The position numbers were made by a program, and so were the translations under genes. DNA of 64,000 nucleotides, taken from the IMG/VR virus record IMGVR_UViG_2713896899_000007, positions 7,041 through 71,040 of that record. The stretch is one strand, 5' to 3'. Position 1 is the first letter of the stretch. The number at the start of each line of letters is the position of its first letter. This document shows positions 3,536-60,410 of this stretch, in pieces. The notes under the pieces are model-generated. The model searched no databases. It saw only the letters and a program-made list of their open reading frames with translations, and was not told the DNA's origin. This DNA comes from a virus. Lineage: Duplodnaviria > Heunggongvirae > Uroviricota > Caudoviricetes.

Positions 3536-3617
3536 TGTTTCATCCTTGAAATAAGTAGGCGCTAACATCCTGTCAGCGCCACAATAATAGTAAATTAGTA
3601 CTTACTTATCCAGATAC

Positions 3618-3953
3618 TTAAGCCTCAAATACTTGTCTGAATGGAGCGGTTAATACTGCGTACCCTTGATATCGCTTGACCGTATGACTGTCGCATACAA
3701 CTACAATCCGTTTTCCTCTTGGATTAACCCAATAGAACGACTCAACACCTGCTCGCTCAGTCAGGAAGTCATCGATTGCATTAATTTCGTTGTATGATCT
3801 GGTAAAGGTTAACGACCATTCTTCTTTAATACGATTAAGACCTTGAGCCTGTCGCTGCTCGTAGTCATCACCAAAATTAAGTACCGTTACATTCGGTTTT
3901 ACGCTTTTTTCAGATTCGTAATCTGGATACCAATTAAACGTTTGTCTTTCCAT
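3618..3953 (-). CDS. minor tail protein, lambda M-like
   Basis: 111 aa. FGDDYEQRQAQGLN and FLTERAGVESFYW align with lambda M as I recall it. Confidence 0.8.
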   Translation of the reverse strand: MERQTFNWYPDYESEKSVKPNVTVLNFGDDYEQRQAQGLNRIKEEWSLTFTRSYNEINAIDDFLTERAGVESFYWVNPRGKRIVVVCDSHTVKRYQGYAVLTAPFRQVFEA

Positions 3954-3995
3954 CTCACATCCTTGTGAGACAGCCCCGACCGGGGCAGTCGATAG

Positions 3996-10038: not shown

Positions 10039-10112
10039 TGATGGAAAACTCCTTTTTCCGTTAATTCTACGCATTCATTGCGCTAATGGTAAGTATATAC
10101 TTACCGATTAAC

Positions 10113-13660: not shown

Positions 13661-13691
13661 AACATAGATAACTACCTATCTACTACACTGA

Positions 13692-15501: not shown

Positions 15502-17076
15502 TCACTCGTTCTCTTGAGTAGATGAGTCCCCATTCCCTCGGGGTTGATCTTGCCCGCTTTCTTGGGCTGCACCACGATCATAAGTAAGTGCTGACTTATT
15601 TTCAAGGGTATTTAGATCATTTTTTGGCGGAAAATTCAAGAGATCTTTATCAAATTCCTTTTTCATCGCCTCAGTAATGTTCGGGAAAATCTTCTCAATA
15701 AGCATTTCCATCTGGTGACGACGTACAGAGTCCGGTGCCTGAAGTAATGACAGTTTCTCGGCAACAGAAAATTCATCTGTAAGGCCACGAATATCGAAAC
15801 TTTCTGGATACGCTATTAAAGAGTGGTCTTCGTCCAGATCTACCCCCATCCATTTCGCAACCAGTAGCATGATTTGGCGTTCAGCCCTTTCCAGACGCTC
15901 TGCTTTTGTGACAAGCAAGCTATTTACACGCTGGAAGTCATACATTTTTGCGGCACCAGATGAGTTATCGATTCCCTGTGCGTTGTCCTGCTTCGTTCGC
16001 TCACCAGCTACACCAACTGAATGGTAGATTTCGTTAATCACCGTCTTAATCGTAGTGATGATCATCTGAGCTTGTTTCGGGTCTGGTGACAGATAAAACG
16101 GCTGGTTTCCACCTTCAGAATCGTAGGTGAAGACTCGCTTTGTGCCCATTTCAAGCACTTTAGTGTGGTTTTCATCACCAGGTAAAAGCGACTGTACCGG
16201 TATAGCCAACTGGCTAAATGTCTGATCCTGAATAATGGCATCAAGGTTTGACAGATAGTTTGCAACCGCACGATCAAGATAAGCGATATCATCGATCAAC
16301 GATGGGCTGAAATACGGTGATTCACTTTCTCCAATACAATCAACAGGAAACACAGGAACTACGCCGAGATTATGCTCACCGCTATCCTCTAAAATAACTT
16401 TTGCCTGACGGCGACCTGCTCCACCAGCGCCCTTCTTCACTTCCTCACGGAACAGATACCACTCGTTTTGTGTCCACAGACGATAACGTTGGTATTCCTG
16501 ACCTGTAGAAGTAAAAGGATCTGCGTCATCACGAGCGACTTCCACAATTAACGCCCACAACATATTCCCGTCGTCGTCCCATGCCACATCCAGCATTTGC
16601 TGAGGTGAAATCCAGTAGGCGTAGGCGCGAGCATCTTTCTTTTTCTCGTCAGCTACTGACTCAACATCACCACTCATCGTGCTATCGACAACAACCCATA
16701 TGCGACCGTAAATAGACGACTGCAAATCAATAGCGGCCATAAATGAGTCAATAGAGGCATTCTGGCGAGTCGCACGTTTCCAGAAATTGCGGATCTGCTC
16801 TGGTGCCTCTTCGATATTTCTATGAATGTCTTCTTTAAAGAGATATTTGTTGATGAGGTTTACCACCTCACGAGTGTGGTTGAAGCGATAAGCACGCTCA
16901 ACTCGCTCCTTAAACTCCTGATCTCCCTCTTTAAAGTAACGAAAGATATTGTCTGTAAACCAACCACGCCCGCCAGCGTAAGTGCTGGCGAGGAAGTCCC
17001 AATGTTCTTTTTTCTTTTCGTATTCCGGGTGGCGTCGCGCCACCAGATCCTTAATTTGTTTGTCGTTCAATTCCAT
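15502..17076 (-). CDS. portal protein
   Basis: 524 aa, immediately downstream of the large terminase. Confidence 0.8.
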   Translation of the reverse strand: MELNDKQIKDLVARRHPEYEKKKEHWDFLASTYAGGRGWFTDNIFRYFKEGDQEFKERVERAYRFNHTREVVNLINKYLFKEDIHRNIEEAPEQIRNFWKRATRQNASIDSFMAAIDLQSSIYGRIWVVVDSTMSGDVESVADEKKKDARAYAYWISPQQMLDVAWDDDGNMLWALIVEVARDDADPFTSTGQEYQRYRLWTQNEWYLFREEVKKGAGGAGRRQAKVILEDSGEHNLGVVPVFPVDCIGESESPYFSPSLIDDIAYLDRAVANYLSNLDAIIQDQTFSQLAIPVQSLLPGDENHTKVLEMGTKRVFTYDSEGGNQPFYLSPDPKQAQMIITTIKTVINEIYHSVGVAGERTKQDNAQGIDNSSGAAKMYDFQRVNSLLVTKAERLERAERQIMLLVAKWMGVDLDEDHSLIAYPESFDIRGLTDEFSVAEKLSLLQAPDSVRRHQMEMLIEKIFPNITEAMKKEFDKDLLNFPPKNDLNTLENKSALTYDRGAAQESGQDQPRGNGDSSTQENE

Positions 17077-17102
17077 TTGAATAACCTTAGATAATTACTT
17101 AC

Positions 17103-18359
17103 CTATCTAGAACCACCAAGAATAACACGGTTTTTGACTGGATACCTACGATGTACTGGATAGCCCAATGCGTCTGCACTATGCTCAATGCCACCTGTCT
17201 TATCCATATCTCGTGTTCCAGGCTTGTAGATGACTTTTTCCAGTGAATCAATCAAATGCTTGCACTTCGGATCGATATACAACCGGATATCTCCAGATGC
17301 GGTCATCAGCATTCGGTTAACAGCATTAACACGATCCGCAATTGGCGGGTGCTTTTTCGAATAATCGACACGTAAGAATCCCTTCTCTTTGAAAATGTCG
17401 ACGTCAGACTCCCCGCGAGCATGTTGGCGATAAGCACCTGCCGGATCTGGAAATACCGTTATCTGTGATTTCCAGCGCCAGAAGCGTCTCTCAAGCTCAT
17501 CACAAACCTCTGCCGTGTTAGAGGAAAAGAGCACCAATTCATCAATTGCCCATAGCTCACCATTTGGCTGAGGTTGCAAAATTACTGAAGACATCGGGTC
17601 AATGTTGAAGTCCTGCCCTACCCATATAGGCAACCGAGGGTTGAACTGAAGCGGTTTTACATGCACGTTACGATCGAACGGGTAGTAAACGCGCCCGGAC
17701 ATGTTCTCAAAGCTCGCCAGGTACTCCTGAGCGAACGATTTCGGGTCCATATCGTTCTTAGCAGCTTCAATTTCCGCCGTAGGTACAAACGGAGAATCGG
17801 CAGTTACAAACTGCCAGCTCTTCCACTGTCCCTTTCTTTGCAGCTCTACGTTCTGGCCTATAGTCCACAGTTTGTGAAATTCCGAGAAGCCTTTTGGCGT
17901 ACCAATGATCAGTGCACCGCCGCGTGTCGATGAAAGAGTAGGTCGTAACACCTTGTACCAGGTGTCAGCCTTCATATCCTGAAATTCATCAAGCACTACA
18001 AAATGCAACGCTACGCCGCGCAGAGTGTCAGGCTTATCAGCACCTTTGAGGGCGATCTCCGAACCGTTCTTCAACACGATTGTCATCGTGGTGTCGTTCT
18101 TTTTCCTAACCCACTTACGAGGCAGAACTTCCTGTAGATCGTCCCACAAAATCTGGCGAGCCATCTGGTAAGTAGGAGCGACATACCAGACTCTTTGCTT
18201 TTTTTCCTTTGCCGCCGCACGAATAATAGTGGAGATCGACAACCGGGATTTTCCCCAGCGTCGACCAGCACAAACAACTTTAAATCGATGCGGAGACTGG
18301 AAGACTTTCATCTGTCCAGAATGCAGTTGCACAAGACTGAGCGAGGACGGGATTGCCAT
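17103..18359 (-). CDS. terminase large subunit
   Basis: Walker A GRRWGKS and Walker B HFVVLDEF, with a C-terminal nuclease-like half. ATGA overlap with the upstream gene. Confidence 0.9.
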   Translation of the reverse strand: MAIPSSLSLVQLHSGQMKVFQSPHRFKVVCAGRRWGKSRLSISTIIRAAAKEKKQRVWYVAPTYQMARQILWDDLQEVLPRKWVRKKNDTTMTIVLKNGSEIALKGADKPDTLRGVALHFVVLDEFQDMKADTWYKVLRPTLSSTRGGALIIGTPKGFSEFHKLWTIGQNVELQRKGQWKSWQFVTADSPFVPTAEIEAAKNDMDPKSFAQEYLASFENMSGRVYYPFDRNVHVKPLQFNPRLPIWVGQDFNIDPMSSVILQPQPNGELWAIDELVLFSSNTAEVCDELERRFWRWKSQITVFPDPAGAYRQHARGESDVDIFKEKGFLRVDYSKKHPPIADRVNAVNRMLMTASGDIRLYIDPKCKHLIDSLEKVIYKPGTRDMDKTGGIEHSADALGYPVHRRYPVKNRVILGGSR

Positions 18360-18991: not shown

Positions 18992-19086
18992 AGATCCCTC
19001 TAAAACACACAGAGCGCGTCCATGCGCTCTAAAACAACTTGTTTACTGCGTATGCTAACCAACTTGTTTTCTGGGGTGTTTAATTA

Positions 19087-19185
19087 GGTCTGGGCATGTC
19101 TTACTAAGCCTGCTTCCGTATATATTTAATAAGTTACTTATTATTTATATATACGGAAGCAGGTCTTTAAATAAGCTCCCAGACC
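19087..19185. repeat. nested inverted repeat (17-bp perfect arms inside 8-bp outer arms)
   Basis: cctgcttccgtatatat (19109-19125) pairs with atatatacggaagcagg (19147-19163). Outer arms are ggtctggg (19088-19095) and cccagacc (19178-19185). A second copy lies at 50158-50210. Confidence 0.85.
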
Positions 19186-19187: not shown

Positions 19188-19454
19188 TTACATCACCAGT
19201 AACTTCGCTTTGGCTCGACCTAAAGTGGTTAACCCAAGAGTCCGGCGGTGATAGCGATTGTCACTGCGTTGGCGCGTATGCCCTTTCTCCACCAGCCCCT
19301 TTTTTATCAGAGCGCGAATTGAGAACTGAATACTTTGCTTGGTTGTCTTGTACGGCAAAACTTCAAGCAATTCGTCCAGATCAAGTAGATGACCTCGCTC
19401 ATAACCGAGATTGAGCGTTTTGATGATGTCCTTTTGTTTATCGGTTAACGTCAT
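19188..19454 (-). CDS. small winged-helix-like DNA-binding protein
   Basis: 88 aa. TTKQSIQFSIRALIKKGLVEK resembles an HTH-wing. Last gene of the ParB operon. Confidence 0.5.
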   Translation of the reverse strand: MTLTDKQKDIIKTLNLGYERGHLLDLDELLEVLPYKTTKQSIQFSIRALIKKGLVEKGHTRQRSDNRYHRRTLGLTTLGRAKAKLLVM

Positions 19455-19463: not shown

Positions 19464-20354
19464 TTATGCCGGTAAAGCAATTTCTAACGGTTTATCCAAA
19501 GGTTGTTTGTCGAATGCCAGCAGTGGCAGCGTGTCAGGCAGTCGACGACCAAAGTCAGGGTTTCGATACACACCATACAACGGAGACGTAAAGCTCAGGT
19601 TGTGAATGTCCTTGAGCAGCTTCACAATGCTGGCCTCGTCCACCAGACTGTCGGCAATGTCCTGAATCGTCGTGCCACGATTCCGCCCAGCTTTTGCCAG
19701 GGAACTGTTCTTGTGGTAGTCCGCCACCAGATCACGCAGTGCACGGCGACGACGAGACTCGCTCATTGCGAACAACTCTTTGACGATCGCCTCGTTATCA
19801 CCCGGGTCAGAACGGAAATGGCGCTGGAATACACGCAGTGCACTTTCATAGCTCTTCGGTCGCTCAGGGCGGATGAACTTAAACCCCGCTTTCATGGCGA
19901 AGGGATTGTATTTGCTCATCGAGGACTGGATCTCAATGATTGGCCGGTCATGCATCCTGCTAACCAGGTTAATCATTCGATAAGAGACGCCTACGCCACG
20001 ATACTGAGTATCCACAACTGAGCGACTGATCACCGCAAAGTTGTTATTCACGTACCGACCCCAGTACTGGTTAGCCACGGTGGTATTAGTGGTTGGTTTC
20101 AACTTAGGAAACATGCGGTGGCGAGGTGCCAACAGTAGTTTCGGGTAAGCCATAACCACGACGCCCACCAGACGGTCATCAAGTTCGCAGCGATAGTAAG
20201 TTGGCGCGAAAGGTTTGCCGTCTGTTTTGTAGTGAAGCGACTTAAGAGCGTGCCAGTCCTCTACAGTTCCCTTTGTAACAGTCATTCGCTCCAGAAAGTC
20301 CAGATGACGCGGAAACTCTTCAGGGCGGTAGCGTTTAATGATGATGTCCGTCAT
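19464..20354 (-). CDS. GNAT-like acetyltransferase-domain protein
   Basis: VVDTQYRGVGVSYRMI fits the GNAT Q/RxxGxG/A acetyl-CoA loop. 296 aa. ATGA-coupled to the upstream ATPase. Confidence 0.5.
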   Translation of the reverse strand: MTDIIIKRYRPEEFPRHLDFLERMTVTKGTVEDWHALKSLHYKTDGKPFAPTYYRCELDDRLVGVVVMAYPKLLLAPRHRMFPKLKPTTNTTVANQYWGRYVNNNFAVISRSVVDTQYRGVGVSYRMINLVSRMHDRPIIEIQSSMSKYNPFAMKAGFKFIRPERPKSYESALRVFQRHFRSDPGDNEAIVKELFAMSESRRRRALRDLVADYHKNSSLAKAGRNRGTTIQDIADSLVDEASIVKLLKDIHNLSFTSPLYGVYRNPDFGRRLPDTLPLLAFDKQPLDKPLEIALPA

Positions 20355-21016
20355 GAATGGACCTCATCGTGACTACCATTGTGATATTCCACCTTCACGC
20401 GTTCTTTGTAGTGCTTGGTGATCTGCATATCCGGGCGCAGCGCGTTCTTCAGGTCTTCGTGAGTCGTCGCCACCATTACCGTCGCACCAACCTTTCGAGC
20501 GGCACGCTGGAGGTTAGACGCCACAACCTGAGCGGTTACACGGTCGAGAACAGCGCCGAACTCGTCAGCAGCCCACACTTTAGCGTCTGACTCAATCAGT
20601 TTGGCAATCTTGAGACGATATTTCTGGCCGTCTGACATTTCAGAAGGCTTGCGAACAAACAGATATGCATCGTTCAGACCAGCCATAGATAACAACCCAA
20701 GCGCATCACTGGTCGTTTTGCCCAACTGATCGATGACGTTAACCTCATTATCGAAGGTAAAATCATCGATGGAGGCTACAGACAGCCCTTCATCCTTCAT
20801 CTGTCGTTGCAACTCGCGCAGCACAACGGATTTGCCGGAACCGGATTGGCCGGTGATGTACACCACATCGCCCTGCTTCACTTCCAGCTCCAGATTGTCG
20901 TAAAGCGTCCACTCTTTTTCGTCCAGGCCAAGCCCGAACGACTCAGCGATTTCCAATGTGCGCGTGGTTTTATTTACGCGTGTCTGAAACGATACGTTGA
21001 TGATGTATTTGCTCAT
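20351..21016 (-). CDS. ABC-type ATPase (stand-alone nucleotide-binding domain)
   Basis: Walker A GQSGSGKS, signature MSDGQKYRL, Walker B VWAADEF. Confidence 0.8.
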   Translation of the reverse strand: MSKYIINVSFQTRVNKTTRTLEIAESFGLGLDEKEWTLYDNLELEVKQGDVVYITGQSGSGKSVVLRELQRQMKDEGLSVASIDDFTFDNEVNVIDQLGKTTSDALGLLSMAGLNDAYLFVRKPSEMSDGQKYRLKIAKLIESDAKVWAADEFGAVLDRVTAQVVASNLQRAARKVGATVMVATTHEDLKNALRPDMQITKHYKERVKVEYHNGSHDEVHS

Positions 21017-21681
21017 GCAGCCATCTCCCCGGAAGAGATCTTCTCCGCATATGCCACAAATGCGTCTACCCCGCTTTCTCCCGTCATTTCTTCCATGTGG
21101 GCAAGCAAATCACCAACAACAATGGCAGAGCCAGCAGGGAGCGTTTTAAAGCCCAATACGTCGACAACACGTACTTCTTCCGCTGCAACTTCACGACTGA
21201 TCTCGGTGTGTTCATCCTTCTGTCGTTTAGTTTCTTCGCCAAGATCGATAACTAGCGAGTCGGTGTCCATTTCTTCTGTCATACTGCCAACGAGAACATT
21301 CAACTCACGCTCTTCAAAGCCGAAAACCTCGATATCGTCCAGAACAAGCGACTCAAGCTCTTTCTGTAGCTTAATTGCATCGTAATCAATGCTGGCAAGT
21401 CGGTTATCTTCAAGGCGCTTCGCACGAACCTCGTCATCACTGAGATCATCGCGAACAATAACCGGTACGCGCTCAAGTCCAGCAAAAATTGCAGCCTCAC
21501 GGCGGCCGTGGCCAGTAATAATTACGTCGTTCTTATCGACCGTAATTGGCTGGTCAAATCCGCGCTTTTTAATGGCTGCGGCTAGATCTCGGATCTGCTG
21601 TTCATCATGCTTTTTGGCATTCATCTCATAGGGAATAAGATCTGCCGGGTCGCGATATACGATTTCAAACTTTTTGGTCAT
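21013..21681 (-). CDS. ParB-like nuclease (ParB/Srx) domain protein
   Basis: ITGHGRREAAIFAGLERVPVIV motif. ATG 21681 overlaps the upstream TAA (TAATG). Confidence 0.8.
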   Translation of the reverse strand: MTKKFEIVYRDPADLIPYEMNAKKHDEQQIRDLAAAIKKRGFDQPITVDKNDVIITGHGRREAAIFAGLERVPVIVRDDLSDDEVRAKRLEDNRLASIDYDAIKLQKELESLVLDDIEVFGFEERELNVLVGSMTEEMDTDSLVIDLGEETKRQKDEHTEISREVAAEEVRVVDVLGFKTLPAGSAIVVGDLLAHMEEMTGESGVDAFVAYAEKISSGEMAA

Positions 21682-22361
21682 TACATACGCTCCTTGTAGT
21701 AGTCGACCAGCCACACCAGAGCCTCACCAGCGTTCTCCATTTCATTACCGGTGTTAATAGCCTGCTCTTTGATGATGTTTTTTATGGTTTCTGCAACACG
21801 ATCTGACGCATCGAAAGTTACTTTGAAGCGCATGGTCTGATGTTCCGCACCCACACGTTCGGTTTTCTCCCGTTTGTCGGTATCGACAGGCTCATCACTA
21901 CCACGAGACAACGCCTCCAGTGCTTCAAGGTCGATTGCCGCCTCTTTTGCTAAAACCATCGAGATTTCGTCGTCATACGGGGCGATTTCAGACAGTTGAT
22001 AGTCAAGTTCTGACTGAATTTCTTCAATGAAGCGTTGCAATGCGATTTGGTCGTCTTCACCGTATCGCTCGTTGTCCACCAGTGACATCTGTTTTGCCAC
22101 GACATCGCTAATTTTGCCCACAGAAAGCACCGGAACCGTTGAAATTCCTTGCTCAATAGCAGCACGCCAGCGATGTTCGCCGCCGAGGATTTCAAAAAAT
22201 CCATCTTCAAGTTCACGAGCCAAAATTGGCTTAAAAAAGCCCAATTTTTCGATAGAACCTTTCAGTTTTTCAAAATTCTGCGCACCAACCGAATTGGTGT
22301 TCCAGGTATTCGGGCGAAGGTTGGCAACATCAACCTGCAAAATCGTGATTTTTACATCCAT
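21681..22361 (-). CDS. ParB-like nuclease (ParB/Srx) domain protein
   Basis: ILGGEHRWRAAIEQGISTVPVLSV motif. ATG 22361 is preferred over GTG 22379. Confidence 0.8.
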   Translation of the reverse strand: MDVKITILQVDVANLRPNTWNTNSVGAQNFEKLKGSIEKLGFFKPILARELEDGFFEILGGEHRWRAAIEQGISTVPVLSVGKISDVVAKQMSLVDNERYGEDDQIALQRFIEEIQSELDYQLSEIAPYDDEISMVLAKEAAIDLEALEALSRGSDEPVDTDKREKTERVGAEHQTMRFKVTFDASDRVAETIKNIIKEQAINTGNEMENAGEALVWLVDYYKERM

Positions 22362-22379: not shown

Positions 22380-22397
22380 TAAGTAACTGCTTACTTA
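22380..22397. promoter_or_regulatory. TAAGTA-type palindrome in divergent promoter region
   Basis: TAAGTAActgcTTACTTA is immediately followed by TATAAT (22397-22402), between the parB-like gene and the helicase gene. Confidence 0.6.
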
Positions 22398-24003: not shown

Positions 24004-24005
24004 TT

Positions 24006-30690: not shown

Positions 30691-30706
30691 GTAAGTATGT
30701 ACTTAC
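30691..30706. repeat. TAAGTA-type palindrome GTAAGTAtgTACTTAC
   Basis: Perfect 7-bp arms, upstream of the 30647 start. Confidence 0.6.
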
Positions 30707-30773
30707 AATACAAAAAAGCCCCGTAAGGATGGCGGGGCTGTCGTACTGTCGACTAATTACCACTTGCACATTA

Positions 30774-42148: not shown

Positions 42149-42690
42149 TACGATGCCTCTAACTTGTCTAACTCTTTCAGCCCTTCACGTACCGCGTTCA
42201 CAATGCGTTCCAGATACTGGTATTTCGGGTTTGGTACCGTTGGCCAGTCGGCATACCACGGATCATCACCAAAGAGATTCAGTAGTTTGTTACCGACGCC
42301 GAAACAGCAGCAGCTTTCTTTTACGTCATCGGCGTTTTCCGCCTCGTCCCACATTTCGCGAGCCAGTACGGCGTCTATTTCTCTCTCTCTTCGTAACTTT
42401 ATGATTTCTGACTTCACGAAAAGCAGATTTGCATCGTTGTCATCGTCGACCGTGCTTCGCAGTTGAGGGTCGAAATAGCCGATTAGATACTCGTTGCTGA
42501 CCCGCTTAATGAACGTCTGCACATCATCACCGCCCATAGCAAACCAAGCCGCAGTCCACGCTTTTCCGTAGCAGGTGATGGTGATTCTTCCCTTACCAGG
42601 TTCGTAGTTTTCAATCATCACTCGAACCGGATCGAGGCGTTCCAGATCCGTCAGCACAAAGGAAAGAACATCTATTTTTTCGATCTTCAT
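42148..42690 (-). CDS. hypothetical protein
   Basis: ATG 42690 overlaps the HD gene stop (ATGA). GGGAGG RBS. Confidence 0.55.
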   Translation of the reverse strand: MKIEKIDVLSFVLTDLERLDPVRVMIENYEPGKGRITITCYGKAWTAAWFAMGGDDVQTFIKRVSNEYLIGYFDPQLRSTVDDDNDANLLFVKSEIIKLRREREIDAVLAREMWDEAENADDVKESCCCFGVGNKLLNLFGDDPWYADWPTVPNPKYQYLERIVNAVREGLKELDKLEAS

Positions 42691-43328
42691 GCAGCCTCCC
42701 ACGCGCTCCAGATCAGCGATTTGTGTTTTTCATAACGTTTGATGTGTACCGGTTTCAGAAGCGCAATACCTTCAGTGACTTTCGCCATTGCGCTTAATAA
42801 CAACGGGTGTTCTATACCTATCCTCTCCATGTACTCGACAACATCAGCGTTGGCACCAATCTCCTTCCCGTTAAAAAGTACGTCCAGCATCAGCTCTTTC
42901 TCTGCAAGGTAGATAGCTGAAAACTCAGGATCGCGACTCACGATAGAAGAGGTATTGTCGAGCAGGTCAGCCAGCTTGATCATGCGCGTCTGCATGTCGA
43001 GATTTTGCTCCAGCTCCCGGACATTGATGATGAAACGCTGTATTCGATTGCCGTCTTCTGGCCTTGCGATGTTGGTCAGAGCCTGAACCATTTCAGCTAC
43101 GCGCTCACCGAAGTGATCACGAACCATCTCTATGGTTACATTGGTGTCTTCGACCACATCATGCAGAAGCGCCGCGATTTGCATCTCCACGGTTCCGTCA
43201 TGCAATGCAACAATCTCTCGGACAGCAACCGGGTGGTTGATGTAGTCTTCGCCGGTATATTTTCTTTTCTGACCAACGCCACCATGAGCGCCAGCGGCGA
43301 ACATATGTGCTTCGGAAATACTAGACAT
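42687..43328 (-). CDS. HD-domain (SpoT/Mesh1-like small alarmone hydrolase family) protein
   Basis: GEDYINHPVAVREIV...AALLHDVVEDT...RMIKLADLLDN. The HD dyad is intact. Confidence 0.8.
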   Translation of the reverse strand: MSSISEAHMFAAGAHGGVGQKRKYTGEDYINHPVAVREIVALHDGTVEMQIAALLHDVVEDTNVTIEMVRDHFGERVAEMVQALTNIARPEDGNRIQRFIINVRELEQNLDMQTRMIKLADLLDNTSSIVSRDPEFSAIYLAEKELMLDVLFNGKEIGANADVVEYMERIGIEHPLLLSAMAKVTEGIALLKPVHIKRYEKHKSLIWSAWEAA

Positions 43329-44532: not shown

Positions 44533-44593
44533 GTGTTTTTCTCTTATCGTTTAGTTACTACATTCTTACACAAATTAAGTAAGTATTTACCTA

Positions 44594-46279
44594 TCATTTA
44601 ACGCGTTTGAAAACGTATACGCTGACTGTGATCCCTGTGTCTTCAAACTCGTTGGTAAACGACTTCCCTCTGGCATAAACGTAATTATCCATCGTCATCC
44701 AGTCCAGTATTGGCGCAGTGCCCGGCAATACTGCTACAAGACGCCCGCCGACTTTCAGATGCCCCAGCGCAGCCATCGTGTGCTCTCTATGACGACCAAG
44801 CGAGTACGGCGGGTTCATAACGATTTTGTCGAACTGATAACCTGCGTTGTCCTCAGACCACTTTATGAAGTCGCAGCAAATCGTGTTCGTATACCCTTTT
44901 CCACGCAGGATATCAGCGAAGAGAGGTGCGATTTCTATGCAGGTAACATCTTCCAGATCGGCGTTAATATAGGCCAGAAGATCCCCACGTCCGGCTTGAG
45001 GCTCCAGCAGCTTCTCACCAGGCTTCAATTCAGTGGCTCTGGCAACGTACTCAGCAATCAAGCGTGGGGTAGGGTAGAACTGGTGTGATTTTGTATCCGG
45101 TATTAAACCGGTAGCCACAATCGTATTTAGCGTATGGCCGATGTCATACGGGAACTGCCAGTGCTTTTTCTCCTGCACGCCGCCAATGAAGCTCAGTGTG
45201 CGCTCAAGCTCTTCCACCTGCGACTTCTGGAGAGCTGAATCAGAGAAGTACCATACGCCTTTGTCTTTGCTCAATCGCCCGTCACGAAGCGCAGTGCGAA
45301 CCGGCACGGAGATCGTCTTCTGGATTAACCCGAACTGCTTTGGTGCCCGTGTTTTTGGCGCAGTGCGGCATGGCGCGGGGATTGCAGCAGGCATACTGTA
45401 AGCCAGCACCTCATTCAACTTCCAGGCCACGTCAGGATGTATTTCAAAGTGAACGTTGCCGTTCTTGAACATCTTCACGCGCATCAGATTTCCATCGACG
45501 TTCATCCAGTCACCGGTCTGGCAGTCGTTTGCCCGATACGCAGCTGATAGCACCTCAGCAGTGCGGTTGATGGTAATAAATTCTTTGTGCGCGAAGAAAT
45601 GAAGCAAGACACGCAGATCGTCGATGTAGTCCTCTTTGCGATAGTTCACGCTAACGCTGTCCCGCCAGAAATCAGAAATGCAGTCAGCGATTATCAGCCG
45701 CTCGCTGAAACCGTTTGTCTTATTCGTCTTGTGCGCAGGACTCAGCGCCTTAAACAAGCCATACACGCGCTCAGAGAGATATTTGTGCCTGTCATTCAGC
45801 AAATTAAGCATCGTGGGTATGACCGTTTCTGCTTTGAACTCCGGTACACCAACGAACTCTTTAACCTTCATCTGGTAGCCGGTTCTGTCAGTTTTGATGA
45901 CTTCCTGTTTGCCCTCTATAAACTGCTCGCGCCACTCATCTCGACGGGAAGCTGGCATGATCAGCAAAACGTTAGTCATGTCCGTGACCTTCCTCCAGTA
46001 CTCGGCCCAAATATTCTGTTTCACCCATTCCAGATCGACTTTATCCAACCAACCTCGATTTAAACGCGAGCGATCTTCATCTGGTCGATGGTTTAGTCGC
46101 AGCAGGCGATTAATCATGTTGTGGCGTTCGTCGCCATAAACGAAGTCGTGTACCTGATACATGAAGGCGATCTCTTTCTCGCACTCGGCCACGATTTCGT
46201 GGATGACATTCATTTCCTGACGATAGTCGATAGCCGTGTTTGAGCTGGCATCGTCGATGATGGAAAGGGCTGTATTCAT
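44594..46279 (-). CDS. N6-adenine-type DNA methyltransferase with large N-terminal domain (DUF4942-like)
   Basis: Motif I LEPQAGRG and motif IV NPPY in the C-terminal third. Confidence 0.7.
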   Translation of the reverse strand: MNTALSIIDDASSNTAIDYRQEMNVIHEIVAECEKEIAFMYQVHDFVYGDERHNMINRLLRLNHRPDEDRSRLNRGWLDKVDLEWVKQNIWAEYWRKVTDMTNVLLIMPASRRDEWREQFIEGKQEVIKTDRTGYQMKVKEFVGVPEFKAETVIPTMLNLLNDRHKYLSERVYGLFKALSPAHKTNKTNGFSERLIIADCISDFWRDSVSVNYRKEDYIDDLRVLLHFFAHKEFITINRTAEVLSAAYRANDCQTGDWMNVDGNLMRVKMFKNGNVHFEIHPDVAWKLNEVLAYSMPAAIPAPCRTAPKTRAPKQFGLIQKTISVPVRTALRDGRLSKDKGVWYFSDSALQKSQVEELERTLSFIGGVQEKKHWQFPYDIGHTLNTIVATGLIPDTKSHQFYPTPRLIAEYVARATELKPGEKLLEPQAGRGDLLAYINADLEDVTCIEIAPLFADILRGKGYTNTICCDFIKWSEDNAGYQFDKIVMNPPYSLGRHREHTMAALGHLKVGGRLVAVLPGTAPILDWMTMDNYVYARGKSFTNEFEDTGITVSVYVFKRVK

Positions 46280-48496: not shown

Positions 48497-48644
48497 GTGG
48501 ACTCCATCCAGTGTCAGAAAGAGTTGCGGCTGGCGATTGCCAGCCGCCTTTCTCGTTCCATCCTGGAACTGTGTCTTACCGACACATTGTCATCCTGACG
48601 CCGATAAGATACATGATTTAAAATAATAGGTAAATACTTACTTA

Positions 48645-49700: not shown

Positions 49701-49817
49701 AAACCTGACGCCAGTGACGCTTACCCCCACCCATCAGGTCGAGTCTCCAGTCTATGACTGGAAACTATCAGATCTTAGCACTTACAATTCATCTTATGAA
49801 TAGTTTGTACTTATCTA

Positions 49818-50157: not shown

Positions 50158-50210
50158 CCTGCTTCCGTATATTAATAATTAATATGTAGTTATTTATATA
50201 CAGAAGCAGG
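50158..50210. repeat. second copy of the cctgcttccgtatat inverted repeat
   Basis: 15-bp arms with 1 mismatch. ggtctggga lies upstream at 50131, as in the first copy at 19087. Confidence 0.8.
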
Positions 50211-50837: not shown

Positions 50838-50857
50838 GATAGGTAAGTGATTACCTA
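50838..50857. repeat. TAAGTA-type palindrome ATAGGTAAgtgaTTACCTAT
   Basis: Perfect 8-bp arms directly upstream of the MTase start. Confidence 0.65.
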
Positions 50858-55663: not shown

Positions 55664-55834
55664 AAAAACCTCACAAAGATAAGTAACCACTTATTCATTG
55701 CGTGAGTTTACATTCATTGAGAGAACAAGACCAGACAGATAAAAAAATGGTGGCCATAGGCCACCAAAAACGAATAGTTGTTTCAGAAATTTAACGCGCC
55801 AACGCAATATACACAGATAGATAACTACCTACAA

Positions 55835-56704
55835 TTATTTTTTGATCATTCCGTACATTGCTGAGGCTTTAGCTTGCTCAACAAAGGAGGATAAATCGAC
55901 ATCACTATAGGTTGGAGACTTCAGAATCTTTCCATCGGAAATTCGAAAACCGATCATCTTATCGGTGCCATCAGCATGGCGAAATCCCAGGTCAGAAGAG
56001 TCGTATTTGCAGTTGGCCACAGCATGGCGACGCTCTTCGGCATCTGCAGGCCATAATTTTGTCATGTTGGACCGATGAATTTCGCCAACCAGCTCGACGA
56101 CATTGATACCGAGGAAATCAGCCAGTCGATAGGTCATCATGCACGCCACATAGATTTTGTTCATTACACGGCGCAGTTCCTGAATCAGCTCAGAATCCTT
56201 AACAGTCTTGTTCTCAAGTTTATCTGCCAGCTCTTCGAGCATACATGACGCCTCACGAGCTTCCTGAAATGGCATTGCCATATCATCGAAAACAGTGTTA
56301 CCAGGCACAAAAATTGTCTGCATAAAGCGATCAATGCTCTGTTCCTGCGTGTAATAGGTCATGCCGGTAGAAATACCACCTTTGATGGCGACCATCGTAC
56401 CAACACCAACGTATAAAAAGTCGGCCATTGCATCCAGCAGTTGCTCAATATCCCCATTCATTGCGGCTGGAATACCTTCCACTACAGCTTCTTCATGAAT
56501 CAGGCTTGCACGGAGACGAAGCAGCTCTGGTGTCGGCATAACGCGTCTCGGATGCTGGAAGAGTTCATGAAACTGATCGACCATCTTGTAAATACTTTCA
56601 GTGGCTACACCATGGCCTTCATGCAACTCATATGGTTCTGGCTTAAATCCAATGAGTCGATCGGTGGCAAGTTTCAGGTGGTCAGTCAGTTTGGTAAAGT
56701 TCAT
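55835..56704 (-). CDS. all-alpha NTP pyrophosphohydrolase (MazG/HisE-like)
   Basis: LIHEEAVVE...DAMADFLYV and IHRSNMTKL motifs. Confidence 0.55.
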   Translation of the reverse strand: MNFTKLTDHLKLATDRLIGFKPEPYELHEGHGVATESIYKMVDQFHELFQHPRRVMPTPELLRLRASLIHEEAVVEGIPAAMNGDIEQLLDAMADFLYVGVGTMVAIKGGISTGMTYYTQEQSIDRFMQTIFVPGNTVFDDMAMPFQEAREASCMLEELADKLENKTVKDSELIQELRRVMNKIYVACMMTYRLADFLGINVVELVGEIHRSNMTKLWPADAEERRHAVANCKYDSSDLGFRHADGTDKMIGFRISDGKILKSPTYSDVDLSSFVEQAKASAMYGMIKK

Positions 56705-58029: not shown

Positions 58030-60345
58030 TCAGATTTTGCAGGCTCCGTCGCACTCATCTTCTGGCTCGACGGCAACAGCTTGCGTAAGTGGATTCTTCG
58101 GTTCGTCGTCATCACGCTTTCCTGCCCCATCTCTGGTGTTGTGGTAGTAAAGCGTTTTAACTCCCATCTTGTAGGCGAGAAGCAAATCTGACAGTAGCGT
58201 CATCATTGGGACTTTATCGCCTTCAAAGCGAGAAGGGTCATAGTTGGTATTGGCTGAAATAGCCTGGTCAAAGAACTTCTGGATGATCGCCACCTTTGTC
58301 AGATAGCCGCGGTTGTCCGGCATATCCCACAGGTATTCATACTGTTCCTTCAGTTTTTCAAACTCAGGCACGACCATCTTAACGATGCCGTCCTTAGAAG
58401 ATTTCACCGACACCGGTCCACGAGGCGGTTCGATGCCGTTGGTGGAATTAGTGATCTGGCTGGAAGTCTCGCATGGCATTTGTGCCGTCAGTGTGGAGTT
58501 GCGAAGACCGTATTTTGCAATACGTTCACGCAGTTCTTCCCACGGCATCTTTAACTCAAAGTTGGTTTCGCCACTTTCGTCTAATGAAGAACGGTAATGG
58601 TCGATCGGCAACTGACCAATTGCGTACTTGGTCTGCTCAAACCAGTCACACTCACCTTTTGCTTCAGCAAGTCGGCAGCTGGCATCAAGAAGGTAATACT
58701 GGATAGCTTCGAACGTTTCATGCACCAGTTTATTGCCAGCGGTATCAGAATAACGAACGCCATTCTTTGCCAGGTAATAAGCAAAGTTGGTTACACCGAT
58801 TCCCAGGCTACGACGAGCTTTGGCAGGCACTTCAGCTGCCTCCATCGGATAGTCTTGATAATCCAGTAACGAATCCAGTGCAGCAACGGCATAGAACGCC
58901 ACCTCTTTAAGAGACTCCAGTGAACGGATGGCTCCGAGGTTAAAAGCAGATAGAGTACACAACGCGATCTCACCGTTCGGGTCGTCGGTAAATGTCAGTG
59001 GACGGGTGGGTAGGGTGATCTCCATACACAGGTTTGACTGGCGGACAGGTGCAAGAGCAGGAATGAAAGCGCCATGCTCGTTAATATGATCGACGTTCGC
59101 AATATAAATTCGGCCCGTGGACGCTCGTTCCTGCATCAGAGATGAGAACAGCTCAATGGCAGGTACTGACTTCTTGCGAATTGAATCATCGGCTTCGTAT
59201 TTATGGTACAGCTTTTCAAACAGATCCTGGTCTGTGAAGAAGGCTTCGTACATATCAGGCACATCATGCGGGCTGAACAGAGTGATGTTCTCGCTTCTGA
59301 CGAGTCGACGGTACATTAGACGGTTACTCATGACGCCGTAATCAAGATGGCGAACGCGGTTTTCATCAATACCACGGTTATTTTTCACCACCAGCAGACT
59401 TTCAACTTCAAGATGCCAGATCGGGTAAAACGCTGTTGCTGCGCCACCACGAACACCACCTTGCGAACAAGATTTAACAGCAGTCTGGAAATGCTTCAGG
59501 AATGGAATAACTCCGGTATGGGTGGCTTCACCATTGCGGATCTCGCTGCCAAGCGCACGGATACGGCCAAAACCAATACCAATTCCAGCACGACGTGAAA
59601 CGTAGTCGATAATTGCGGCTGAAGCTGCACTAATACCTTTCAGACTATCGCCAGACTCAATCAGCACACAACTGGAGAACTGACGGGTTGGAGTACGGAC
59701 GCCGGCCATGATTGGTGTGGGCAGAGACAGTTTGAACGTACTTGTAATGTCATAGAAACCTTTGACCATCTCCATACGTGTTTTGCCCGCGCAGTCGTCT
59801 TCCCAATTCTGGAACAGACACATGCCAACCAGCATATAGATATGTTGCGGACCTTCGTGAATCTCACCAGTAACACGGTTTTGTACGAGATATTTGCTTT
59901 GCAGCTGCACCGTAGCCGCATAGCCAAAAAGATCGTCACGTTTAGGCTTAATGTAATTGCCGAGTTCTTCGATCTCTTCAAACGAATAATGTGTCAGCAA
60001 ATCCTTGTCATAAACGCCCTTGTTAACGTTCTTGACAATGTGTTGGTAGAAGTTCGGATAGTCGTAACGACCGAAGGCATCTTTGCGGATTTTAAAAATG
60101 TTCAGGCGGGCAGCCACCTGTGAGTAATTTGGTGCTTCTGGTGAGATCAAATCAGCGGCAGATTTAACCAAAGCCTCATGCAACTGGCTGGTGGTCATCC
60201 CATCAAAAATGCTGGCCACAGCTCCCATTGCTACAGCGGATGCGCTTACGCCACGAATGCCTTCTACGCCATACATTACGACGCGGTTGTATTTTTCTTC
60301 GGATAACGGCTCTGTTTGGCCGTTACGTTTTACGATGCTTATCAT
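58030..60345 (-). CDS. nrdA: ribonucleotide reductase class Ia alpha subunit
   Basis: 771 aa with an ATP-cone N-terminus, the NLCMEI motif and a C-terminal CDGACKI. Confidence 0.95.
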   Translation of the reverse strand: MISIVKRNGQTEPLSEEKYNRVVMYGVEGIRGVSASAVAMGAVASIFDGMTTSQLHEALVKSAADLISPEAPNYSQVAARLNIFKIRKDAFGRYDYPNFYQHIVKNVNKGVYDKDLLTHYSFEEIEELGNYIKPKRDDLFGYAATVQLQSKYLVQNRVTGEIHEGPQHIYMLVGMCLFQNWEDDCAGKTRMEMVKGFYDITSTFKLSLPTPIMAGVRTPTRQFSSCVLIESGDSLKGISAASAAIIDYVSRRAGIGIGFGRIRALGSEIRNGEATHTGVIPFLKHFQTAVKSCSQGGVRGGAATAFYPIWHLEVESLLVVKNNRGIDENRVRHLDYGVMSNRLMYRRLVRSENITLFSPHDVPDMYEAFFTDQDLFEKLYHKYEADDSIRKKSVPAIELFSSLMQERASTGRIYIANVDHINEHGAFIPALAPVRQSNLCMEITLPTRPLTFTDDPNGEIALCTLSAFNLGAIRSLESLKEVAFYAVAALDSLLDYQDYPMEAAEVPAKARRSLGIGVTNFAYYLAKNGVRYSDTAGNKLVHETFEAIQYYLLDASCRLAEAKGECDWFEQTKYAIGQLPIDHYRSSLDESGETNFELKMPWEELRERIAKYGLRNSTLTAQMPCETSSQITNSTNGIEPPRGPVSVKSSKDGIVKMVVPEFEKLKEQYEYLWDMPDNRGYLTKVAIIQKFFDQAISANTNYDPSRFEGDKVPMMTLLSDLLLAYKMGVKTLYYHNTRDGAGKRDDDEPKNPLTQAVAVEPEDECDGACKI

Positions 60346-60390
60346 GTATCACCAAATAAAGAGGGCCACTAAATATAGTGGCCCATGTTA

Positions 60391-60410
60391 ATAGATAAGC
60401 ACTTACCTAT
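60391..60410. repeat. TAAGTA-type palindrome ATAGATAAGcaCTTACCTAT
   Basis: Near-perfect arms between the RuvC-like stop and the nrdA start. Confidence 0.55.

Follow-up and report, generated by a model that had tools for sequence, protein, structure and literature searches.

A dispersed 18-bp palindrome at gene junctions of SSU5-like phage-plasmids: candidate operators of an element-encoded DNA-binding protein

Introduction

Cluster A mycobacteriophages carry up to about 30 stoperators; the repressor gene has a repressor site of its own, and from one heteroimmune group to another the motif changes along with the repressor (PMC6550527, PMC9283540). The stoperators of L5 gp71 and its relatives are dispersed in the short intergenic spaces of lytic operons, and D29 is a repressor-less lytic deletion derivative among these phages (PMC9283540, PMC6550527, PMC5712189). 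The phage-plasmid P1 has a 9-bp inverted repeat, bound by Lpa, at its 11 late promoters (PMC10695390). The annotated P1 operators Olpa and Oc1a-e overlap promoters; the C1 operators are 17 bp long and asymmetric, and the P1 structural genes are governed indirectly, via Lpa, and not junction by junction. RK2 (IncP) contains a dozen or so dispersed palindromes (OB) at variable promoter positions, the operators of a global regulon under KorB, a ParB-family HTH protein. The lambdoid and 434 Cro-C1 (XRE) operators are palindromes of 14-18 bp that bind HTH dimers and overlap -35, -10 or +1, and in the classical specificity shift a base change in the inner operator is matched late in the recognition helix.

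Here we analyze a window of 64,000 nucleotides (the whole stretch of DNA considered, whose numbering is used throughout) that is 98% identical to the E. coli phage-plasmid Cyrano/pLF82 of the SSU5 family. SSU5-like phage-plasmids, among which are pLF82/Cyrano, Y. pestis pMT1 and Klebsiella plasmids that carry resistance, are widespread in Enterobacterales, with 741 PLSDB plasmids, pMT1 among them, matching the backbone, and their gene regulation is essentially uncharted. The element has two dispersed palindrome families, the second of which is GAAAACAAnTTGTTTTC; the first, our subject, was not found in any paper of the literature searched.

Like the stoperators, this palindrome occurs at tens of sites in the short gaps between genes, in early as well as late lytic operons. 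However, stoperators are 13 bp long, asymmetric, read by a monomer and set in one orientation, whereas the sites here are 18-bp palindromes with equivalent halves, about half of which overlap sigma-70-like promoters, and the candidate binder is a small XRE-type HTH protein. The setting recalls P1 C1, in that many scattered promoters of a plasmid-prophage, that of the repressor's own gene included, would answer to one repressor. The P1 late promoters similarly place a short inverted repeat with AAGT..ACTT by the -10 hexamer, ahead of phage-plasmid morphogenesis genes, but their box is 9 bp long, lies at a fixed distance to -10 and serves the 11 late promoters only; the present motif is 18 bp long, takes four registers and precedes early-type genes too. 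In contrast to KorB, the ParB-like proteins encoded here have no recognisable HTH, and they do not track the motif switch described below. As a predicted operator the palindrome resembles those of Cro-C1 (XRE) proteins in its size, about 14-18 bp, and in its overlap with core promoter elements, but lambdoid operators are clustered at one immunity region while the present sites stand singly at about 28 loci.

Results

The motif is one unspaced 9+9 palindrome of 18 bp, TARGTAAGT·ACTTACYTA (half-site TARGTAAGT, type 1; n=16 in the window). A sequence-only reading had described the family at ten main sites, all of which prove to be real and to lie where it placed them, and at four weaker half-sites, of which 3591-3608 and 49800-49817 are genuine while 14592 and 15494, with scores under 8 bits, are unsupported; the sites at 15581-15598 and 55680-55697 and the long-palindrome centres at 19130 and 50179 are additional. 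Every one of the 16 sites exceeds 14 bits with a 24-nt weight matrix, and no site in the window scores between 8 and 14 bits. The number expected is 0.01-0.9 over all background models together (0.07-0.9 for the weight matrix under an order-3 Markov model of the window), and TARRTAANNNNTTAYYTA at up to two mismatches gives 21 matches, 6 of them exact, versus 2.0 expected. Fifteen of the 16 sites are intergenic, within 8.2 kb of intergenic DNA where 0.014 are expected from a Markov model trained on the window's AT-rich intergenic DNA only, a frequency above what such DNA would yield. Genome-wide counts range from about 26 to 29 (28 in SSU5, 29 in Klebsiella pJN2-26), and sites are found too in Y. 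pestis pMT1 and a Buttiauxella plasmid. SSU5 and pJN2-26 are ~80% identical to the window's element, and positions are conserved in these relatives, 15 of the 16 sites having a counterpart at the matching junction in both. The sites, with weight-matrix scores, are:

Site P, 3591..3608: minor tail protein M / L junction, sense on the minus strand, TAAGTAAGTACTAATTTA; 22.2 bits; orthologues SSU5 15590, pJN2-26 53622; promoter-like TGGATA-17-TATTAT at 3612-3584 (minus), then a terminator-like hairpin at 3580-3558
Site O, 10088..10107: tail completion / tail tube junction; 23.0 bits; perfect palindrome GGTAAGTATATACTTACC at 10088-10105, matrix register 10090-10107; orthologues SSU5 9068, pJN2-26 47137; promoter-like, minus strand, TTGAAT-18-TATACT and TTACCA-17-TAGAAT (10092-10064)
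Site N, 13665..13682: 9 nt past the major capsid protein stop, terminator 13657-13641 immediately downstream; 18.8 bits; orthologues SSU5 5472, pJN2-26 44027, Cronobacter 88463
Site M, 15581..15598: within the 3' end of the portal gene; 24.7 bits; core is the spacer of a predicted internal promoter TTGAAA-17-TATGAT at 15605-15577 (minus; 10/12 promoter match)
Site L, 17088..17105: large terminase/portal junction; 21.1 bits
Motif-like centre, 19130..19147: within a long, imperfect palindrome that spans 19087-19185 and precedes the small terminase gene; 15.2 bits
Site J, 22380..22397: 64-nt divergent region between the helicase operon (plus) and the ParB-like operon (minus); 22.2 bits
Site I, 30692..30709: in the order terminator, site, gene 30252-30647; 14.6 bits
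Site H, 44576..44593: immediately past the stop of a DUF4942 methylase-like gene; 28.6 bits, exact match; orthologues SSU5 84179, pJN2-26 20936
Site G, 48627..48644: immediately past the stop of an RNase H-like gene; 30.3 bits, exact; orthologues SSU5 79905, pJN2-26 16843
Site F, 49800..49817: one good half only, TAGATAAGT; 18.9 bits; orthologues SSU5 78710, pJN2-26 15674
Motif-like centre, 50179..50196: in a second long palindrome, 50158-50210; 20.2 bits; orthologues SSU5 78320, pJN2-26 15286
Site D, 50840..50857: upstream of an adenine methyltransferase gene; 26.2 bits, exact
Site C, 55680..55697: immediately before the thymidylate synthase gene's ribosome-binding site; 20.0 bits; orthologues SSU5 72512, pJN2-26 9790, Cronobacter 50908
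Site B, 55818..55835: at the stop codon of a MazG-like gene; 14.5 bits
Site A, 60392..60409: RuvC-like gene / nrdA junction; 29.7 bits, exact; orthologues SSU5 67776, pJN2-26 5036, Cronobacter 46189 (type 2)

The sites at 10088 and 30691 look like a 4-bp-wider variant in the window, but comparison with their orthologues identifies them as ordinary sites of which one half is degenerate. Long palindromes with a motif-like centre number three in Cyrano, with two found in each of SSU5 and pJN2-26; the 19130..19147 centre belongs to this sub-family and is not a typical site. Taken together the sites span gene junctions of the replication, nucleotide-metabolism, head, tail and lysis clusters, with nrdA, thyX, a dam-like methylase gene, ssb, an sbcD-like gene and replication genes among those downstream. 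At most sites the core begins -3 to 64 nt from the stop codon (median about 9), and many sites stand in co-directional gene arrays, often 0-10 nt past a stop and 11-16 nt before a start. The spacing of 20-60 nt before the next start that had been described holds for about half of the sites, the full range being 11 to about 140 nt. Sites G and H are, as had been noticed, the identical 18-mer in opposite orientations, within one co-directional array.

About half of the sites (A, B, D, I, J, M, O and P) overlap predicted, conserved sigma-70-like promoter sequences that point at the downstream gene, with -35 and -10 hexamers kept across genomes. At site A the core overlaps TTGATA-17-TAACAT (60413-60385), which is followed by a terminator at 60384-60363. 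The -35 box stands in place of the left half at sites B (TTGTAG-17-TATATT; TTGTAA-17-TATATT in SSU5 and pJN2-26) and I (TTGTAA-17-TAAAAT), the promoter geometry of the latter being kept in SSU5 and pJN2-26, where the palindrome is near-perfect. The core of site D covers -7 to +11 of TTGCCA-17-TGcAAAAAT (50885-50857), also kept in SSU5 and pJN2-26, and in the Cronobacter plasmid a TATAAT ends at core position 1. Both promoter features singled out previously, TTACCA-17-TAGAAT by the 10088 palindrome and the TATAAT adjoining the core of site J, are present; site J has a counterpart in SSU5, pJN2-26 and a K. quasipneumoniae plasmid, and is of type 2 in the Cronobacter lineage. Conservation of the two boxes at site M extends to SSU5, pJN2-26 and the K. 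quasipneumoniae and Cronobacter plasmids, the core changing type in the last. These promoters fall into four registers, in which the -10 box begins at core position -4, 17, 20 or 25, and for registers 17, 20 and 25 there are 22 sense predictions versus 1 antisense, each call being a consensus match in AT-rich DNA. The distance from the core to a -10 box is not constant, and the information content beyond +4 is about zero. In all four registers the core falls between about -36 and +11, within the RNA polymerase footprint, which argues for the geometry of an operator and not of a fixed promoter element; the same geometry could also suit a protein that both represses and activates. Three sites (13665, 60392 and 3591) lie between a stop codon and a terminator, and for these an operator role makes sense only if the weak promoters that overlap them are genuine. 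No convincing promoter was seen at site L, where the terminase stop codon forms core bases 1-3 and the portal ATG lies 11 nt beyond the core, a layout shared with SSU5, pJN2-26 and the K. quasipneumoniae and Cronobacter plasmids.

In the Cronobacter/Enterobacter plasmid lineage all 24 sites, mostly at junctions used in type-1 genomes, have switched to TAGGTAGNT·ANCTACCTA (type 2). Each of the 24 Cronobacter sites fits TAGGTAG[T/C/G]TA[A/G/C]CTACCTA better than type 1, while type 1 gives the better fit for 16/16 sites in the window, 29/29 in pJN2-26 and 26/28 in SSU5. Two inner positions are altered; the TA skeleton and the symmetry are strictly kept, and the flanking -35 and -10 boxes are unchanged. 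Since all sites of one lineage switched together, the binder is likely encoded by the element itself, and the concerted change points to an element-encoded specificity partner. Only one such switch was found, so that any Cronobacter-specific substitution 'tracks' it.

Discussion

Three roles had been suggested for the palindrome from the letters alone, and among these the operator of a global regulator is favored by its symmetry as DNA, its variable position in promoter footprints and its concerted change in one lineage. Left and right halves have equal base composition, T5 is invariant in 82/82 half-sites, and at position 3 the two halves vary independently. An RNA hairpin acting in polycistronic transcripts, whether in processing, 3'-end protection or translation control of the next gene, would suit the spacing in co-directional arrays; a perfect palindrome is able to fold, and the genes of the window include one for a homologue of FljA, a post-transcriptional repressor. 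However, over 43 sites standard pairs make up 71.1% versus 71.5% in column shuffles, covariation is 0.166 versus 0.165, and mismatches are balanced between G-U (18) and A-C (13), with 32 others. The 18-mer of sites G and H occurs in both orientations to transcription, site J is in a divergent promoter region, and an Rfam search matched no family to the palindrome. With halves that vary independently and without compensatory changes, we infer a duplex-DNA site for a symmetric (dimeric) sequence-specific protein, and hold a hairpin, including the RNA processing site first suggested, to be very improbable. The same low probability attaches to module-boundary repeats, that is, short homologies for gene shuffling as in T4-type promoter-stem-loop cassettes, with protein binding secondary. 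The sites do stand exactly at gene/module junctions common to mosaic relatives, and accessory genes beside several of them differ among relatives, but 18 bp is short for homologous exchange, one site is kept inside portal coding sequence, and a lineage-wide change of two inner positions that spares skeleton and symmetry is the imprint of a binding protein, not of a recombination need.

A phage-specific middle or late promoter element, working as an activator site like the P1 Lpa box, is in our view unlikely. P1, likewise a phage-plasmid, uses inverted-repeat late promoters (PMC10695390), and its annotated LPhot box, AAGTTACTT-N9-AATAAT, is similar to the type-1 centre AAGTACTT and is present exactly in the long palindrome that precedes the small terminase gene, but the type-2 centre has lost this likeness. 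Several sites overlap or replace the -35 region and have a -10-like hexamer after them; on the other hand, the four registers leave no fixed -10 distance and near-zero information downstream of the core, the overlapping promoters have fair -35 boxes (TTGAAA, TTGATA, TTGTAA), unlike activator-dependent ones, and at sites D and J and the XRE promoter discussed below the core lies at -7 to +11, where an activator cannot work. Sites are also found ahead of early-type genes (nrdA, thyX, dam, ssb) and of replication genes, which, with the missing Lpa homologue, speaks against the late promoter element as it had been put forward: no PF25716 (Lpa) protein was found, and tblastn of Lpa against Cyrano gave one weak match (E = 0.29), to the protein at 24317-24916, which shows no similarity to PF25716 at E up to 1 and has no counterpart in SSU5, pJN2-26 or the Cronobacter plasmid. 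That all sites are kept in SSU5 despite its lack of the candidate XRE repressor does favor an activator. Less probable still is a role in loading or binding the two tandem ParB/Srx-domain proteins (21013-22361), KorB-like or partition/nucleoid-organising. ParB-type sites (parS, the KorB operator) are palindromes 13-16 bp long, with no spacer, and can act at variable promoter distance, two paralogous ParB N-domain proteins accompany two dispersed palindrome families, a motif site is found at the ParB-like operon promoter in all lineages examined, and homologues occur in a distant relative that retains the type-1 motif. Yet only the N-terminal ParB/Srx domain aligns confidently to solved ParB, Noc and Spo0J structures, the segment opposite the Spo0J/ParB HTH being acidic and poorly aligned; no residue in a plausible DNA-reading segment of either protein tracks the type switch, and the partition ATPase gene parA lies elsewhere, with its own small partner and another motif at its promoter.

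We think it somewhat more probable than not, judging from the sequence, that the palindrome is the operator of an element-encoded dimeric DNA-binding protein, most likely the plasmid-state (lysogenic) repressor of lytic genes; a dispersed operator set for such a repressor would be comparable to mycobacteriophage stoperators and P1 C1 operators. Repressor on the core at promoter sites (over the -35/spacer, in the spacer, or over the start) would exclude RNA polymerase, and at junctions too short for a promoter, such as terminase/portal, bound protein would form a roadblock to read-through, so that lytic genes would be silenced while the element lives as a plasmid. The roadblock position at site L is inferred because no convincing promoter is there, and elongation may be blocked at the palindromes by analogy with stoperators. 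More tentatively, and with some doubt on our part, SSU5-like phage-plasmids might possess an undescribed stoperator-like network in which one small XRE repressor acts on about 28 palindromes, as promoter operators and intra-operon roadblocks, type 1 and type 2 being heteroimmune groups that govern superinfection and coexistence, and the second, complementary palindrome family, GAAAACAAnTTGTTTTC, controlling the remaining genes. A defined operator set would provide a transcription-unit map, a concrete lysogeny-switch candidate and ready targets to force induction or silence the element, and type 1 versus type 2 is a sequence marker that may predict immunity or compatibility between these plasmids.

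The leading candidate for the binder is an XRE-family HTH protein (CYRAN_45 in Cyrano) whose gene lies next to the integrase, outside the window, and which gives weak HTH_19/HTH_3 matches, under Pfam cut-offs. The gene is found in 865 PLSDB plasmids with the genus profile of the backbone. The protein has been listed as a putative repressor, with expression in LF82 lysogens about 10-fold above the local background (PMC9928086). Its predicted promoter TTTACA-16-TAATAT ends on position 1 of C[A/G]GTAAG[C/T]ACTTACC, the core lying at +1, in Cyrano, pJN2-26, pMT1 and Buttiauxella, and provided that the XRE protein is the repressor this motif would be the autoregulatory site of a repressor gene. Cyrano, pMT1 and Buttiauxella have the same helix 3 (YKNANNLSLIKSGK); SLIK is kept in pJN2-26 and the K. 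quasipneumoniae plasmid, with SNIK in the type-2 lineage, whose protein is less than 50% identical to every other PLSDB family member. The type-2 motif and a highly divergent XRE protein thus coincide, as a single event. At the start site of the Cronobacter XRE gene there is no clean type-2 palindrome; a hybrid site and three AAGTAAG half-sites, type-1-like, are found.

The XRE gene is absent from SSU5 only, which was isolated as a plaque-forming phage; the absence parallels the D29 deletion derivative. Its 28 sites equal those of other genomes in quality, and with sites intact where the XRE gene is lacking, their binder may be some other protein, one that SSU5 has retained. The small wHTH product of 19188-19454, the binder suggested at first, does not track the switch; its putative recognition helix is identical in one type-1 and one type-2 genome. 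In pMT1 the XRE regulator gene adjoins the F1 capsule operon.

Setting and Enrichment of the Palindromes

Over a 9-kb piece the window shares 98.3% identity with Escherichia phage Cyrano, which is the phage-plasmid pLF82 of E. coli LF82; for the same piece identity is ∼82% with Salmonella phage SSU5 and ∼78% with Klebsiella phage-plasmids such as pJN2-26. The minus strand is the coding strand for most window genes, and the gene clusters were mapped from the Cyrano annotation.

Gene clusters of the window, by Cyrano annotation
1-19 kb: tail, head and terminase genes
∼19-22.4 kb: ParB-like operon
∼22.4-44 kb: accessory and regulatory genes
∼44-64 kb: nucleotide-metabolism and recombination genes

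The palindromes share an 18-bp core, TARGTAAGT·ACTTACYTA (type 1, TAGGTAAGTACTTACCTA), and form a real, strongly non-random family that is positionally conserved and co-evolves with the element. Every site listed in an earlier sequence-only reading is present; of its four weak half-sites those at 14592 and 15494 are unsupported and the remaining two are real, and sites at 15581 and 55680 as well as the centers of two long palindromes (19130, 50179) had been overlooked. With up to two mismatches the degenerate pattern TARRTAANNNNTTAYYTA matches the window 21 times (6 exactly) against 2.0 expected, and a 24-nt matrix built from window, SSU5 and pJN2-26 sites picks out 16 in the window, each scoring above 14 bits, where 0.07-0.9 would be expected. 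No window sequence scores between 8 and 14 bits on this matrix, so that sites and background separate cleanly. Intergenic DNA, 9% of the window, holds 6 of 8 TAGGTAA and 9 of 13 GTAAGTA occurrences. Chance and AT-richness are ruled out by three null models, including one trained on AT-rich intergenic DNA alone that predicts 0.014 sites against 15 observed; the genome-wide scan that the reading had proposed thus places motif frequency well above the AT-rich intergenic expectation.

A Duplex DNA Signal

Three genomes supplied 41 co-directional sites, whose half-site reads T-A-R-G-T-A-A-G-T; T5 is unvarying in 82 of 82 halves, the left and right halves have equal base composition, and the purine at position 3 varies independently between them. 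The flanks are roughly symmetric (AAAAtgA before the core, TcATttt after it), the upstream one being somewhat stronger, in part because stop codons of the preceding gene fall there. TA dinucleotides occupy positions 1, 5, 9, 13 and 17 and are invariant both in type 1 and in the variant (type 2) described below. A "six-frame stop" insulator was considered and rejected: in type 1, stop codons arise in no more than two frames on each strand (TAC at position 9), and a six-frame stop is therefore not the selected property. Nor is there a separate class of motif with four extra central bases (10088, 30691), since the orthologues of these sites are ordinary type-1 palindromes with one degenerate half.

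An RNA processing site, one of the roles first proposed, would call for pairing between the arms in the transcript. In an alignment of 43 sense-oriented sites standard pairs make up 71.1% of cells, as compared with 71.5% when the 3' partners are shuffled among sequences, and the covariation score is 0.166 against 0.165 after shuffling. Mismatches are balanced (18 compatible with G-U on the sense strand, 13 A-C, 32 others), no Rfam family matches anywhere in the window, and one identical 18-mer occurs at 44576 and 48627 in opposite orientations within a single co-directional gene array. An RNA hairpin is rejected on these grounds; that each half independently matches one half-site sequence accounts in full for the complementarity. 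The pattern is the signature of a symmetric protein that would act on duplex DNA.

Conservation and a Lineage-Wide Switch

There are 28 sites in SSU5, 29 in pJN2-26 and, above 14 bits, 26 in Cyrano, and conservation of position in relatives is borne out by 15 of the 16 window sites, for each of which SSU5 and pJN2-26 both carry a site at the corresponding junction.

Conserved site locations
RuvC-like/nrdA junction
MazG-like/thyX junction (two sites)
5' of the adenine methylase gene
3' of the RNase H-like gene
3' of the DUF4942 gene
helicase/ParB-like divergent region
terminase/portal junction
within the 3' end of the portal gene
capsid/Ig-like junction
tail completion/tube junction
tail M/L junction

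A second Klebsiella lineage has 27 sites, and sites are present too in Y. pestis pMT1 and a Buttiauxella plasmid. The 103-kb record IMGVR_UViG_2713896750_000003, a distant relative that was not recovered in PLSDB and whose nucleotide similarity is almost nil, carries several perfect TAAGTAAGTACTTACTTA sites even though its ParB-like protein is 41% identical, one of these sites being directly 5' of the small terminase gene. Among viral contigs outside the SSU5 group, those in which an exact TAAGTAAGTACTTACTTA occurs have no more than one to three sites apiece.

In relatives whose ParB-like proteins are 72-75% identical, the palindromes found at the corresponding junctions are altered. There are 24 sites in the complete Cronobacter sp. 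JZ38 plasmid NZ_CP017663, and their consensus is TAGGTAG[T/C/G]TA[A/G/C]CTACCTA (type 2): G replaces A at position 7, position 8 tolerates more bases, and the mirror positions show the corresponding changes. A type-2 matrix fits better at 24 of 24 of these sites, and type 1 at 16/16 in the window, 29/29 in pJN2-26, 26/28 in SSU5 and 22/26 in Cyrano. The -35 and -10 hexamers around switched sites are unchanged; at the portal-internal site of Cronobacter TTGAAA and TATGAT are retained, although this site is within coding sequence. Concerted change at ∼24 dispersed loci, a single event in these data, points to co-evolution with an element-encoded specificity partner, which would be its simplest explanation, and makes composition, a host factor or sigma-70 itself less likely causes. 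A host transcription factor is therefore an unlikely binder, and to our knowledge the motif matches none of the TyrR, LexA, RcsAB, NarL, OxyR, SlyA or IHF consensus sequences.

The window sites at 13665-13682 and 55818-55835 have a GGTAGTTA center that is closer to type 2 than to type 1, and the Cyrano counterpart of the former reads TAGATAAGTAATTATCTA; these centers may have arisen by drift or may be left over from exchange between the lineages. The DUF4942 methylase-like protein (44594-46279, minus strand) is unusually divergent in the type-2 lineage, with identities of 93% in SSU5, 88% in pJN2-26 and 56% in Cronobacter, and with 27% of its type-1-invariant columns altered in Cronobacter as compared with 11% genome-wide.

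Predicted Promoters, Terminators and the Operator Reading

Sigma-70-like matches are scarcer in the window than expected (10 against 22.5 over 1-20 kb, 16 against 27.2 over 43-62 kb), and ∼10 of these 26 lie on or adjoin motif sites. Across three genomes the sense predictions fall in four registers, with the -10 box starting at core position -4, 17, 20 or 25, and for the last three registers there are 22 sense predictions and 1 antisense.

Predicted promoters at motif sites
TTGAAA-17-TATGAT: inside the portal gene, core as spacer; kept in window, SSU5 and pJN2-26
TTGATA-17-TAACAT: nrdA; kept in window, SSU5 and pJN2-26
T[A/G]GATA-17-TATTAT: tail gene L; kept in window, SSU5 and pJN2-26
TTGTAA-17-TATATT and TTGTAA-17-TAAAAT: -35 box takes the place of part of the left half; conserved in three genomes
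TTGCCA-17-TGnAAAAAT: 5' of the methylase gene, final T is core position 1; conserved in three genomes

In every register the core lies within about -36 to +11 of the promoter. No -10 box stands at a fixed distance from it and information content past +4 is near zero, so that the late promoter element also envisaged at the outset is not supported in that form. Variable placement within the predicted polymerase footprint is operator behavior, not that of an activator box or promoter element. Several junctions are too tight for a promoter (11 nt separate core and ATG at terminase/portal). At 13665, 60392 and 3591 a stop codon is followed by the site, then by a terminator and a ribosome-binding site, and at the latter two the predicted transcription start lies within the terminator hairpin, in its 5' arm.

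We are inclined, by a modest margin of belief, to regard the palindromes as dispersed operators of a dimeric repressor that the element itself encodes, which would occlude the promoters that overlap its sites and act as a roadblock at tight junctions. The regulator-operator role first suggested is favored by the variable placement inside the footprint and by ∼24 dispersed loci having switched together.

Of the systems already described, the stoperators of Cluster A mycobacteriophages come closest: a network in which up to 30 dispersed repressor sites are found, one at the repressor gene, and in which motif and repressor diverge between heteroimmune groups (PMC9283540, PMC6550527). Stoperators differ in being asymmetric, 13 bp long, orientation-dependent and read by a monomer; the SSU5-family sites would work like stoperators and operators yet are outside the stoperator family. 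The C1 operators of P1 are likewise dispersed but asymmetric. P1 Lpa boxes are inverted repeats that also contain AAGT..ACTT, but unlike the present sites they stand at a fixed distance to the -10 box, at late promoters only, and are Lpa-dependent. The motif strings are absent from the papers searched, and nothing on operators of SSU5-type phage-plasmids was found in them. Regulation, and possibly immunity groups, of a widespread and clinically relevant plasmid family become directly testable.

Candidate Binders

Candidate binders were screened for residues that are invariant in type-1 genomes (Cyrano, SSU5, pJN2-26, a K. quasipneumoniae plasmid and, in part, the distant IMG/VR relative) yet differ in the Cronobacter plasmid. 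One candidate, the small wHTH protein (19188-19454) named in the sequence-only reading, does not follow the switch, as its putative recognition helix is identical in pJN2-26 and Cronobacter; its homologues among the 120 matches listed are close SSU5-family relatives only, with at least 75% identity. No convincing Cronobacter change in the DNA-reading segment was found in ParB-like proteins 1 and 2, the small terminase, the FljA-family repressor (26162-26686), CYRAN_113, the ribbon-helix-helix (RHH)-like CYRAN_117 (24006-24284) or the ParG-like partner of ParA.

The ParB-like proteins match solved ParB structures in their N-terminal domain only. These ParB/Srx N-domain proteins are tandem paralogues, 33% identical (21013-22361, minus strand), in an operon directly 5' of the terminase genes that also holds ABC-type ATPases and the small wHTH protein; neither has a recognizable HTH, and toward the C-terminus of each a strand-helix segment stays the same from lineage to lineage. 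CYRAN_117 (92 aa, plus strand, pattern ..YCQVALSDKANEKL...KMSKAEVINAILE..) is listed with the genes that LF82 lysogens express (PMC9928086). The strand with which it is predicted to read DNA varies even from one type-1 genome to another, and for this reason CYRAN_117 probably has its own target. Homology to P1 Lpa is unsupported, with no Lpa homologue found; a 199-aa protein (24317-24916, plus strand) shows a weak, local similarity to the Lpa N-terminus (35% over 52 aa, pairwise E = 0.001), but PF25716 does not match it, and SSU5, pJN2-26 and the Cronobacter plasmid all lack a homologue.

The best-fitting candidate, tentatively, is the XRE protein CYRAN_45, an HTH protein of Cyrano coded beside the integrase and outside the window. 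In the LF82 study it is a putative repressor expressed ∼10-fold over local background in lysogens (PMC9928086). The integrase/XRE-regulator/small divergent (cro-like) gene block is missing from phage SSU5 alone.

Integrase/XRE block
Cyrano: 41090-43038
Y. pestis pMT1: 20001-21485
SSU5: absent

By tblastn the XRE protein is found in 865 PLSDB plasmids, with a genus profile (Klebsiella 348, Escherichia 230, Enterobacter 92, Yersinia 63, Salmonella 49) alongside that of the backbone (281, 213, 91, 62 and 49 in the same order). Because essentially every plasmid-form member carries the block, the candidacy stands despite its absence from SSU5. SSU5 was isolated as a plaque-former and may be a repressor-less lytic derivative, a parallel to mycobacteriophage D29, which is described as having arisen by deletion from a temperate parent (PMC5712189). 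The motif sites of SSU5 are undecayed despite the missing gene, a caveat to the XRE link.

The XRE promoter, TTTACA-16-TAATAT, ends on position 1 of a C[A/G]GTAAG[C/T]ACTTACC site, an arrangement common to Cyrano, pJN2-26, pMT1 and Buttiauxella. Three versions of helix 3 occur together with the type-1 motif: YKNANNLSLIKSGK (Cyrano, pMT1, Buttiauxella), YKNPNILSLIKKGR (pJN2-26) and FENANNISLIKSGR (K. quasipneumoniae plasmid). In type-2 Cronobacter helix 3 is YENANNLSNIKTGR, and the XRE protein of Cronobacter has <50% identity to all PLSDB family members except that of an Enterobacter CP102 sister (95%). By analogy with 434 repressor the Leu-to-Asn position is presumably the residue that reads inner operator bases, and the substitution would then coincide with the changed inner bases of the motif. 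Further caveats are that the switch is a single event and that the region upstream of Cronobacter XRE holds a hybrid site and type-1-like half-sites, with no clean type-2 operator. In pMT1, where the XRE promoter has the same operator-like site, the F1 capsule operon (caf1R, caf1M, caf1A, caf1) directly adjoins the integrase/XRE pair (20001-27373 in all).

Other Palindromes in the Window

A second palindrome family, GAAAACAAnTTGTTTTC, gives 38 strand-hits against 4.3 expected.

GAAAACAAnTTGTTTTC sites
19030-19071, 24017, 26637, 29252, 30192, 31095, 31579, 32770, 33448, 33499, 34369, 38307, 43382, 46290, 47004, 47733, 57953

These cluster between 19 and 47 kb, a stretch almost free of the TAAGTA motif, so that the two regulons look complementary. 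GAAAACAAnTTGTTTTC lies just 5' of the parA start in Cyrano, SSU5 and the Cronobacter plasmid and is the same in the type-2 lineage, with no switch; the FljA-family protein and the RHH-type partner of ParA are candidate binders. Long imperfect palindromes with arms CCTGCTTCCGTATATA... occur at 19087-19185 and 50158-50210, with three in Cyrano and two each in SSU5 and pJN2-26. They are candidates for a bidirectional terminator, a cruciform or a binding site, and the one upstream of the small terminase has a center, AAGTTACTT, that equals the annotated -22 box of the P1 late promoter LPhot.
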